Shown here in pieces: positions 52-58,541 of a DNA stretch of 64,000 nucleotides. The DNA lies in NCBI GenBank assembly GCA_964016885.1, contig OZ024740.1, positions 176,762,001 to 176,826,000 of the forward strand, given 5' to 3'. The notes below the pieces were generated by a model that did no database searches, was not told the origin of the DNA, and was given only the letters and a program-made list of their open reading frames with translations. How positions within the stretch are numbered: the first letter of the stretch is position 1; every line of letters begins with the position of its first letter. Origin of the DNA: Eledone cirrhosa. Taxonomy: Eukaryota. A program made the position numbers and the translations under genes.

Positions 52-124
52 GGTTCCATAGTGTAGTGGTTATCACGTCTGCTTCACACGCGGATGGCCG
101 CGAGTTCGAAACTCGCTGGACCCT
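52..124 (+). tRNA. trnV: tRNA-Val(CAC), unit 1
   Basis: Cloverleaf, anticodon CAC at 85-87; T3.C70 acceptor mismatch. Confidence 0.7.
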
Positions 125-132
125 TTATTACA

Positions 133-277
133 ATATTTTTAATCTACAGTAGCTCTTCTAATTGATGAGTACCCATATAATTTTAATCTACACTAGCTCT
201 TCTAAGACATGAGTGCCCATATAATTTTAAATTACACCAAGTCTTTCAAGCCATCAGTGTCCATATACTTGTCAATC
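133..277 (+). repeat. 44-bp minisatellite, 3 copies plus a partial copy (every unit; 2 copies in units 31-32)
   Basis: ATA(T/A)TTTTAA(TC/AT)TACA...CCAT at 133, 177, 221. Confidence 0.9.
136..140 (+). terminator. Pol III oligo-T terminator for Val-CAC (representative)
   Basis: T5 run 12 nt after the gene. Confidence 0.55.
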
Positions 278-337
278 AATAATACAGATTAATGTCAGTA
301 AATGCGTTTAAAATTATGTGAGAAAGTGACTAGTTTT

Positions 338-410
338 GCTTACATAGTTTAGTGATTACCACGCCAGATTCACAAGCAGGTGATCGCGATTCCGAAACTT
401 TCTGTAATTC
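338..410 (+). pseudogene. Decayed tRNA-Val(CAC) relic (representative; in every unit)
   Basis: GCTTACA TA GTTT AGTGATTAC CAC G CCAGA TT CAC AA GCAGG TGATC GCGAT TCCGAAA CTTTC TGTAATT aligns without gaps to the CAC gene; stems are broken. Confidence 0.85.
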
Positions 411-886
411 TTGTTTCAATTAAAAACAAACTCCAGTTGTGTCATGATCCTTAGATGCTTAAATATTTTTCCATCTATCAACACGGTAGCTTCAATGTGC
501 AGTGGTGTATATTTTATCCTATACTAGATTTGGGCCGACTTGTGCCATACAACAGTACTGAAGTATTTCCTAAATATATATAAGCGCTAATTAAATTTAG
601 ATTGTTAATGAACTGCTTCCAAATTTCCTCATCATGAAACCAAACGATGGCTTATTACCAAATAAAGCCTTATTAAACATGTTTACATGTCCAGTAAATT
701 AGTGAAAGATGTATAAATGTAGAGGTAGCTGATTAGCCATGTAAATACTACGTTATGAACGATTTTATATATTTAGCATCTACGTCAAGAACTTTGTTTA
801 ACGCATGTCAGCCTAGTTTCAGCATTGGTAAAGTATGTAGCAATGGATATTGACATTGGCAAGGATATGATCAGGAGAAATATCTG

Positions 887-894
887 AAAAAAAA
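887..894 (-). terminator. Pol III oligo-T terminator for Val-TAC (representative)
   Basis: A8 on + (T8 on -) about 10 nt after the gene 3' end. Confidence 0.75.
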
Positions 895-903
895 GGAGTG
901 TCA

Positions 904-976
904 AAGTTGCAGCATGTTTCGAACTCACGACTATCTGCGTGTAAAGGAGATATGAGAACCACTACACCATGGAACC
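904..976 (-). pseudogene. trnV: tRNA-Val(TAC), damaged allele, unit 1
   Basis: TAC loop; lesions in anticodon stem, A21 and acceptor stem. Confidence 0.7.
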
Positions 977-1094
977 ACAGACTTGTTTTAGAACAAATAT
1001 TGCCTCAATACATTTACATTTTATCAATTATGCTGAATTGAAACAAATGTAAATGTATTTGATAAGACAATGTTTCTTCTTTCATTCTTCATCT

Positions 1095-1167
1095 GGTTCC
1101 ATGGTGTAGTGGTTATCACATCTGCTTAACACGCAGAAGGTCGTGAGTTCGAAACTCGCTGGAACCT
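1095..1167 (+). tRNA. trnV: tRNA-Val(AAC), unit 1
   Basis: GGTTCCA/TGGAACC acceptor, TCTGC-TTAACAC-GCAGA, GTTCGAAAC; intact. Confidence 0.9.
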
Positions 1168-1176
1168 CCAATTATC

Positions 1177-1183
1177 TTTTTTT
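1177..1183 (+). terminator. Pol III oligo-T terminator for Val-AAC (representative)
   Basis: T7 run 10 nt after the gene. Confidence 0.75.
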
Positions 1184-1476
1184 CTTTTACTTCTATTTCA
1201 TTTTGTGTTGTGTTTGATAGAATCTCACATATTTCTTCTGACTATCTCCTCGACAATTTCTATATCCAGTACTGTATATTTTACCTTACATATGCTGGAA
1301 CTCTGCTGACCTGTGTTTTACAAAAGTACTTGACGTAGATTCGAAATATTAATAACCAATCATTATATAGTATTTATATTGTTAATCAATTGCTTCCAAA
1401 TTTATACAAGTTTCACTAAATTAACAGAAATATAAACGTGTTTCATAATGCAATATACGTTAGGAAGCAACCGTTT

Positions 1477-1550
1477 GATACAATGTTGTAGTGTGTATCT
1501 CATTTGCAAAAAACACGAGATGATCGCGGATTCGACATTCGCAGCAAACA
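1477..1550 (+). pseudogene. Second decayed tRNA-Val relic (representative; in every unit)
   Basis: GATACAATGTTGTAGTGTGTATCTCATTTGC...TGATCGCGGATTCGA(A/C)ATTCGCAGCAAAC aligns to GGTTCCATGGTGTAGTGGTTATCACATCTGC...GGTCGTGAGTTCGAAACTCGCTGGAACC; anticodon loop eroded. Confidence 0.75.
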
Positions 1551-3824: not shown

Positions 3825-3897
3825 GGTTCCATAGTGTAGTGGTTATCACGTCTGCTTCACACGCGGAAGGTCGCGAGTTCGAGACTCGCTCGAGACT
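3825..3897 (+). pseudogene. trnV: tRNA-Val(CAC), broken acceptor, unit 3
   Basis: 3' strand TCGAGAC gives two mismatches. Confidence 0.65.
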
Positions 3898-20875: not shown

Positions 20876-21654
20876 TTATTACAATATTTTTAATCTACAG
20901 TAGCTCTTCTAATTGATGAGTACCCATATAATTTTAATCTACACTAGCTCTTCTAAGACATGAGTGCCCATATAATTTTAAATTACACCAAGTCTTTCAA
21001 GCCATCAGTGTCCATATACTTGTCAATCAATAATACAGATTAATGTCAGTAAATGCGTTTAAAATTATGTGAGAAAGTGACTAGTTTTGCTTACATAGTT
21101 TAGTGATTACCACGCCAGATTAACAAGCAGGTGATCGCGATTCCGAAACTTTCTGTAATTCTTGTTTCAATTAAAAACAAACTCCAGTTGTGTCATGATC
21201 CTTAGATGCTTAAATATTTTTCCATCTATCAACACGGTAGCTTCAATGTGCAGTGGTGTATATTTTATCCTATACTAGATTTGGGCCGACTTGTGCCATA
21301 CAACAGTACTGAAGTATTTCCTAAATATATATAAGCGCTAATTAAATTTAGATTGTTAATGAACTGCTTCCAAATTTCCTCATCATGAAACCAAACGATG
21401 GCTTATTACCAAATAAAGCCTTATTAAACATGTTTACATGTCCAGTAAATTAGTGAAAGATGTATAAATGTAGAGGTAGCTGATTAGCCATGTAAATACT
21501 ACGTTATGAACGATTTTATATATTTAGCATCTACGTCAAGAACTTTGTTTAACGCATGTCAGCCTAGTTTCAGCATTGGTAAAGTATGTAGCAATGGATA
21601 TTGACATTGGCAAGGATATGATCAGGAGAAATATCTGAAAAAAAAGGAGTGTCA

Positions 21655-44287: not shown

Positions 44288-44360
44288 AAGTTCCAGCATG
44301 TTTCGAACTCACGACCATCTGCGTGTTAAGCAGATATGATAACCACTACACCATGGAACC
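44288..44360 (-). tRNA. trnV: TAC-position gene with anticodon AAC, unit 24
   Basis: + strand GCGTGTTAAGCAGA = TCTGC TT AAC AC GC. Confidence 0.7.
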
Positions 44361-44478: not shown

Positions 44479-44551
44479 GGTTCCATGGTGTAGTGGTTAT
44501 CACATCTGTTTAACACACAGAAGGTCGTGAGTTCGAAACTCGCTGGAATCT
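44479..44551 (+). tRNA. trnV: tRNA-Val(AAC), unit 24
   Basis: Compensatory T31-A39; G2.T71. Confidence 0.85.
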
Positions 44552-46360: not shown

Positions 46361-46433
46361 GGTTCCATGGTGTAGTGGTTATCACATCTGTTTAACACAC
46401 AGAAGGTCGTGAGTTCGAAACTCGCTGGAACCT
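46361..46433 (+). tRNA. trnV: tRNA-Val(AAC), unit 25
   Basis: Compensatory T31-A39; intact. Confidence 0.9.
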
Positions 46434-48055: not shown

Positions 48056-48128
48056 AAGTTCCAGCATGTTTCGAACTCACGACCATCTGCGTGTTAAGCA
48101 GATATGATAACCACTACACCATGGAACC
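48056..48128 (-). tRNA. trnV: TAC-position gene with anticodon AAC, unit 26
   Basis: + strand GCGTGTTAAGCAGA. Confidence 0.7.
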
Positions 48129-48246: not shown

Positions 48247-48319
48247 GGTTCCATGGTGTAGTGGTTATCACATCTGTTTAACACACAGAAGGTCGTGAGT
48301 TCGAAACTCGCTGGAATCT
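48247..48319 (+). tRNA. trnV: tRNA-Val(AAC), unit 26
   Basis: Compensatory T31-A39; G2.T71. Confidence 0.85.
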
Positions 48320-58467: not shown

Positions 58468-58541
58468 GGTTCCATAGTGTACTGGTTATCACGTCTGCTT
58501 AAACACGCGGAAGGTCGCGAGTTCGAAACTTGCTGGAGCCT
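58468..58541 (+). pseudogene. trnV: CAC-position gene with 8-nt anticodon loop TTAAACAC, unit 32
   Basis: TCTGC TTAAACAC GCGGA; G15C. Confidence 0.6.

Follow-up and report, generated by a model that had tools for sequence, protein, structure and literature searches.

Here, we show that a 64,000-nt stretch of DNA (the window) is filled from position 1 to 64,000 by tandemly repeated valine tRNA genes in which a single gene body, ending in U73 at the discriminator position, carries the anticodons AAC, CAC and TAC. The same body is found on contigs of other species. The account that we consider probable is that the array was built from a U73 body of this kind used for all three anticodons, that its AAC and TAC genes arose by an inverted duplication combined with a change of base 34 and that its copies now drift in a near-neutral manner.

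The array comprises 34 units of 1,843–1,889 bp (unit ~1,886 bp) that run head to tail, each with tRNA genes, and it continues past both window ends with a GC content of ~32% along the full window. Pairwise distance between the 34 units is 2.6% on average, and units 12–18 are a near-unchanged recurrence of units 1–7 (0–1 substitutions), which marks a recent block duplication. Each unit holds, in order, a CAC gene (+), a 44-bp minisatellite, a decayed Val gene (psi1), a 12-nt remnant of another Val gene, a TAC gene (-), an AAC gene (+) and a second decayed Val gene (psi2), as listed for the first unit in Table 1. In the window ARAGORN reports 32 CAC, 29 TAC and 36 AAC genes as well as 2 genes with an AAAC loop of 8 nt, 99 tRNA genes in all, and a motif scan finds the CAC, TAC and AAC slots in all 34 units. 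Above the gathering score of Rfam RF00005 there are 93 window matches, which cover the AAC slot in 34/34 units, the CAC slot in 30/34 and the TAC slot in 29/34. The AAC anticodon and the lack of an encoded CCA are signs of a eukaryotic nuclear locus. In the spacers, the minisatellite behind the CAC gene is shorter in units 31 and 32, and an imperfect 60-bp palindrome (E 0.01) lies upstream of the CAC gene at window positions ~1805–1865 (unit consensus 1794–1853).

Table 1 Features of the valine tRNA array, in window coordinates
Feature	Position	Strand	Remarks
tRNA-Val(CAC) slot	52..124	+	T73; T5 terminator 12 nt downstream; flanks unlike those of the other slots
44-bp minisatellite, ~3 copies per unit	133..267	+	Directly behind the CAC gene
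psi1, decayed Val gene with CAC anticodon	338..410	+	3' flank homologous to the AAC and TAC 3' flanks
12-nt remnant, 5' end of a further Val gene	630..641	-	At inversion breakpoint; mirror of psi2
Old inverted duplication	630..1488	.	TAC gene in one arm, AAC gene in the other
tRNA-Val(TAC) slot	904..976	-	Likely pseudogene; T73
tRNA-Val(AAC) slot	1095..1167	+	Best preserved; T73; long T-run terminator
psi2, decayed Val gene with AAC-like loop	1477..1550	+	382 bp downstream of the AAC gene; its 5' flank and the AAC/TAC 5' flanks are homologous
TAC-slot gene that now reads AAC	44288..44360	-	Unit 24; all five TAC-slot markers kept
Same TAC-to-AAC switch	48056..48128	-	Unit 26, the sister of unit 24; the five TAC-slot markers are likewise retained
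AAC gene in which U31-A39 replaces C31-G39 (compensatory change)	44479..44551, 46361-46433, 48247-48319	+	3/34 units
CAC-slot gene with 8-nt AAAC anticodon loop	56624..56697 and 58468-58541	+	Units 31 and 32

The consensus bodies of the three slots, compared with a masked base 34, differ at 5 (CAC/AAC), 5 (AAC/TAC) and 10 (CAC/TAC) of 73 positions, and this likeness within a unit is well above chance (blastn E 4e-27 and 4e-20). In vertebrates and insects, a body of the kind seen here is that of Val-TAC genes, and the AAC and CAC genes have a separate body. A preliminary description of positions 52–1167 had reported three anticodons on one gene body, and that likeness is confirmed here; the three genes it described are, however, one unit of a window-wide array, and their TAC copy (904–976) is damaged and is missed both by ARAGORN and by Rfam at the gathering score.

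The slots are unequally preserved. All stems are paired and all invariant bases are present in 18/34 AAC copies, 9/34 CAC copies and 0/34 TAC copies. In the T stem of the TAC consensus, A52 and A62 are mismatched and two pairs are G-U; this consensus also has a G1-U72 pair, and in the energy model it gives no cloverleaf, whereas the AAC and CAC consensus sequences fold, the D arm excepted. Rfam scores are 52.9–62.2 bits for AAC and at most 47.7 bits for TAC, and they are used here instead of the tRNAscan-SE bits of which the isoacceptor-shift study PMC3923123 asks at least 50 for both genes. Judged by its sequence, the TAC slot is likely a pseudogene. The AAC and CAC consensus sequences retain the invariant bases of the Pol III A and B boxes, a terminator of T5 or longer lies within 15 nt of the CAC, TAC and AAC slots, and A35, C36 and C38 of eukaryotic cytosolic tRNA-Val are all present. 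Ten of the 34 CAC copies (units 3-5, 7, 14-16, 18, 20 and 21; for example 3825-3897) belong to one common haplotype with a broken acceptor stem, which is spread over the left part of the array.

The relationship between the slots is recorded in their flanks. Self-comparison of the unit reveals an inverted duplication of ~840-860 bp (69% identity over 890 columns, E 6e-113; arms 630-795/1323-1488 and 888-977/1094-1183), in which the TAC and AAC genes stand head to head, 118 bp apart; the two decayed full-length Val copies of each unit are detected by nhmmer at E 3e-11 and 4e-7. When flanks were compared with shuffles, gene bodies excluded, those of TAC and AAC matched on both sides (3' z 23-29, 5' z 8.6-18). 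The 3' flank of psi1 matches the AAC/TAC 3' flanks (z 11-16), with no matching 5' flank, and the 5' flank of psi2 matches the AAC/TAC 5' flanks (z 4.2-6.3); no flank homology was found between the intact CAC slot and the other slots (z <=1.5). Homologous flanks around different anticodons, the mark of an anticodon shift, are thus present on both sides for the TAC/AAC pair, on the 3' side only for psi1 and on neither side for the intact CAC slot. The flanks shared by TAC, AAC and the decayed copies indicate the copying and inversion of a ~380-bp segment, which now carries two or three anticodons.

The copies do not look like a tRNA-derived SINE or Helenus-type element, for which a common head and body, unshared upstream DNA and a degenerate tRNA part would be expected: TAC, AAC and psi2 share their 5' flanks, the terminator follows directly after the gene and the head is a full tRNA. 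With its T5, also found in the TAC genes outside the window (see below), the 12-nt remnant was considered as a possible ancestral TAC gene, an idea given up in view of the C5 in its mirror copy, psi2.

In the TAC/AAC pair the genes are more alike (67/73 positions) than their flanks (240/312; Fisher p 0.003), whereas psi1, compared with AAC, is conserved no better than its own flank (gene 51/71, flank 150/217, p 0.77). An excess in the switched pair and none in psi1 suggests that the pair was long under constraint or was converted, and gene conversion could mimic past constraint here.

Among the present units the picture is different. Counts of distinct derived alleles against the spacer expectation are 18 versus 12.4 (CAC), 19 versus 12.4 (TAC) and 11 versus 12.5 (AAC) in the gene slots, and 13 versus 12.1 (psi1) and 9 versus 11.9 (psi2) in the decayed copies. 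By this comparison we found no purifying selection per copy among array units, the genes being no better conserved than the spacers; the present drift of the array copies is likely close to neutral. In this otherwise signal-free background, U31 and A39 always occur together in the AAC anticodon stems that carry the change; the pair may have come from another isodecoder by conversion.

Base 34 has also changed recently. The TAC-slot genes of two sister units now read AAC (Table 1), and psi1 has gone from CAC to AAC in unit 12, a change at 21089-21161 that is the sole substitution separating unit 12 from unit 1; it could be a sequencing error. All three non-AAC slots (TAC, CAC and psi1) have independently gained A at base 34; the product of the per-allele rates is ~4e-4 (by hand), with ~0.09 such coincidences expected over all sites, and a hotspot in the loop, very short conversion tracts or chance could be responsible.

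These observations bear on an alternative that we judge improbable, namely that the inverted arm received its TAC anticodon by gene conversion from another Val-TAC gene, or more generally that short patches were exchanged by conversion or crossover between near-identical bodies. The bodies are indeed near-identical across anticodons, the derived A34 recurs in every non-AAC slot, psi1 looks chimeric, with CAC-type markers and an AAC-type 3' flank that has no 5' counterpart, and intergenic tRNA conversion has been described (PMC4981973). However, alleles that copy the base of another slot are not in excess (4/48, with 2.6 expected, P 0.27), so that no ongoing conversion between slots is detected in the array and point mutation suffices, and the switched TAC-slot copies keep their own markers at positions 25 and 44, which would confine any tract to <18 nt.

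The body also occurs elsewhere, and an invention of it at this locus is not supported. An exact-pattern scan of metagenome contigs, made with the 5' 43 bases and a non-T base 34 and able to find only this body, returned six loci (L001-L006) on five contigs of two public assemblies; a scan of prokaryotic genomes gave 0 matches. The loci hold nine full Val genes (4 AAC, 3 CAC and 2 TAC) and one truncated AAC copy, with 10 RF00005 matches in all and 59-67 bits for the full genes. With base 34 masked, these full genes differ from their commonest body at 0-3 positions: the CAC gene of L004 equals the four outside AAC genes at 72/72 unmasked positions, and the TAC gene of L005 has one further base different from the commonest body. 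The window slots differ from that body at 4 (AAC), 5 (CAC) and 9 (TAC) positions, and the intact CAC slot shares A9, G26 and C50 with the outside CAC genes. Among nine sequencing runs listed in a word search, three from one sample hold over half of the words and three from other organisms hold small shares (0.05-0.07), which we take as no evidence; no RNA run is among those listed.

No flank homology was found between the outside genes and the window. Among 78 gene pairs tested, homologous flanks across different anticodons occur inside the window only, and the pairs above z 4 (7 downstream and 6 upstream of 78) are either same-anticodon outside pairs or window-internal. The AAC bodies of L005 and L006 are identical within 1.7 kb of surrounding DNA that is only 71% identical, from which we infer purifying selection and, hence, that these U73 genes are functional. 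One outside contig carries CAC(+), TAC(-) and AAC(-) within 2.5 kb (L004 283-355; L005 608-680 and 1471-1543), and a cluster of three Val isoacceptors may be old in the lineage. The order in the window is CAC(+), TAC(-), AAC(+), as against CAC(+), TAC(-), AAC(-) on that contig, and the flanks no longer align. Inverted-repeat elements resembling non-autonomous DNA transposons lie near outside Val genes (L002 1062-1484; L001 2864-2966; L003 1008-1102). The flanks of the outside contigs resemble what we take to be oyster or mussel (bivalve) repeats. Checks of this likeness did not confirm it: a comparison with the supplement of PMC8268682 gave 0 matches, protein searches returned two unnamed hits and later none, and the best Atlas score was 0.87.

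A shared body is also seen in planarians. In Schmidtea mediterranea, 18/19 Val rows of a noisy machine-read table (PMC7962491, supplement 1) show one body across AAC, CAC and TAC. The D arm, anticodon stem and variable region are alike in type to those of the window genes, whereas the acceptor and T stems differ, and in the same noisy table the shared-body rows end in A (10/18), C (5) or ...AT (3), as against T73 here.

Base 73 is T in 100/102 slot copies of the window and C in the other 2, and it is T in 9/9 full and 1/1 truncated outside genes. The search pattern ended at position 43 and thus did not select for base 73, and the outside TAC genes were not selected by the pattern either. Since the AAC genes have a full 7-bp acceptor stem, the register of position 73 is not in doubt, and the A73 of eukaryotic cytosolic tRNA-Val is absent. 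Across 12 gene types T73 is conserved in 12/12, compared with 9, 8 and 10 of 12 for positions 74, 75 and 76; T73 is therefore not clearly more conserved than its neighbours, and a T-rich trailer inherited from a common ancestor can play a part in it. Position 76 is A in 10/12 gene types, with 74 and 75 variable, possibly again through shared descent.

Giege and Eriani 2023 (PMC9976931) give A73 and A35 as eukaryotic Val determinants, with A73 universal in canonical tRNA-Val, and place U73 among the determinants of eukaryotic Cys and Thr. We found no report of U73 in a cytosolic tRNA-Val in the literature, judged mostly from listings, which is no proof of its absence from print or databases. 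Helenus primer-binding sites, considered as a check on mature U73, include no reported Val primer, and the Triops supplement has Val only as a mitochondrial tRNA. A Plasmodium paper on U73 was rejected as a precedent, as it concerns Thr, Lys and Gln and not Val. Perhaps a second Val family with another body and A73 exists among dispersed genes.

The unusual discriminator could be taken to mean that the array is a dead tRNA-derived satellite, with U73 marking non-functional genes. Such a satellite would explain the lack of purifying selection among copies and the low numbers of intact TAC and CAC copies, and A73 is a listed eukaryotic Val determinant (PMC9976931, Table 1). We nevertheless regard it as very unlikely: the outside U73 genes are near-invariant within diverged flanks and score well in Rfam, more than half of the AAC copies in the array are intact and have terminators, and wheat-germ ValRS is described as ignoring base 73 on a viral tRNA-like substrate while reading A35, C36 and C38 (PMC9976931).

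The preliminary description had further proposed a TAC ancestor at this locus from which both AAC and CAC were derived, the rest of the genome keeping the usual separate AAC/CAC body. Part of this stands, in that the TAC/AAC duplication and base-34 change did take place at the locus, that TAC, AAC and a decayed CAC copy have common flanks and that units 24 and 26 show TAC-to-AAC switches of recent date. A local origin of the shared body, however, is not supported: that body already carries AAC and CAC in contigs of other species, amid unrelated flanks, and in planarians, which, as far as these data reach, is the finding that the description itself had set against local recruitment, and the intact CAC slot combines flanks unrelated to the other slots with the three bases typical of outside CAC genes. 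Nor is a TAC ancestor supported: the TAC slot is the most damaged (34/34 copies), and psi2, which has this 5' flank too, looks AAC-like. Recruitment of both anticodons from a local TAC gene thus appears highly improbable to us, and psi2, a single damaged copy, together with the damage to TAC would weakly point to a switch from AAC to TAC.

Hardly credible, finally, is the idea that U73 is genomic only and that a canonical mature tRNA-Val is made by trimming the 3' end back to base 72 and adding an A before CCA: discriminator repair exists for some mitochondrial tRNAs, and T73 stands out little from its T-rich trailer, but no such pathway for cytosolic tRNAs was found in literature listings, and T73 is constant across the 12 gene types, in which base 74 is variable.

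In its homologous flanks, different anticodons and base-34 change, the locus resembles known isoacceptor shifts and tRNA remolding (PMC3923123, PMC4981973). Among known anticodon shifts, those at base 34 are the most frequent, with 39/44 isoacceptor shifts (Rogers and Griffiths-Jones 2014, PMC3923123), and recent remoldings are often found in pseudogenes or decaying copies (Velandia-Huerto et al. 2016, PMC4981973). Unlike in known isoacceptor shifts, the shift here lies between paralogs of one repeat unit and has been multiplied by amplification, with old and new forms side by side. The multi-gene head-to-tail units and the short tandem repeats in their spacers recall the tRNA arrays of Entamoeba (PMC2652664), but, in contrast to those arrays as described there, the unit is Val-only and of one ancestry, several of its genes are decayed, its copies are 2.6% diverged and no per-copy purifying selection is seen. 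The AAC and CAC consensus sequences share A35, C36, C38 and a normal cloverleaf with canonical tRNA-Val but have U73 in place of A73 (PMC9976931). Valylation without A73 is possible in viral tRNA-like structures of the TYMV type, which have A73 or C73 (PMC9976931); unlike those viral RNA ends, the sequences studied here are chromosomal tRNA genes with U73. Tandem tRNA arrays are already known, and local switching is a known process that is only partly applicable here. The wobble switching seen here is a clean example of it, in which old events and very recent ones share a single locus.

On our preferred account, a single body with U73 serving all three anticodons in the lineage, as seen in part in the outside loci, would have been the starting point. 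In the literature, valine identity resides in A35, C36 and C38 and not in base 34, and base 34 is predicted here to be free to change with charging kept. A segment of ~380 bp with one Val gene would then have been duplicated head to tail and afterwards inverted; the homology of the copies is observed, and the order of events is our reconstruction. One copy of the segment would have changed its wobble base, more likely from AAC to TAC than the reverse, and the new TAC gene may have been long constrained or converted before its T stem was lost. The intact CAC gene would have entered the cluster separately. Amplification brought the 1.9-kb cluster to 34 copies or more, with the recent block duplication on top, probably through unequal crossing-over. 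Selection would act on total tRNA dosage and not on single copies, so that pseudogenes and new changes of base 34 would build up.

The U73 valine tRNA family is a lead worth following, and it matters more than the wobble switching. We put forward tentatively, from sequence comparison, that an animal lineage may have placed its whole cytosolic Val set on one interchangeable body and dropped A73 for U73, a proposal that we hold possible without favouring it. GtRNAdb in 2023 contained one mollusc only (PMC10886601), so that such traits of a marine-invertebrate lineage could have escaped notice. NSUN6 reads U73 (PMC6409601), and eukaryotic DTD1 favours U73 on tRNA-Gly (PMC10954443). If the proposal is true, ValRS would ignore or prefer U73, and the enzymes that read U73 (CysRS, ThrRS, NSUN6 and eukaryotic DTD1) would have had to adjust, with side effects plausible. 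The array would then be a visible record of anticodon swaps on a single body, and a lineage with U73 valine tRNAs would offer a natural test of how the discriminator rule can be rewired in the animal cytosol.
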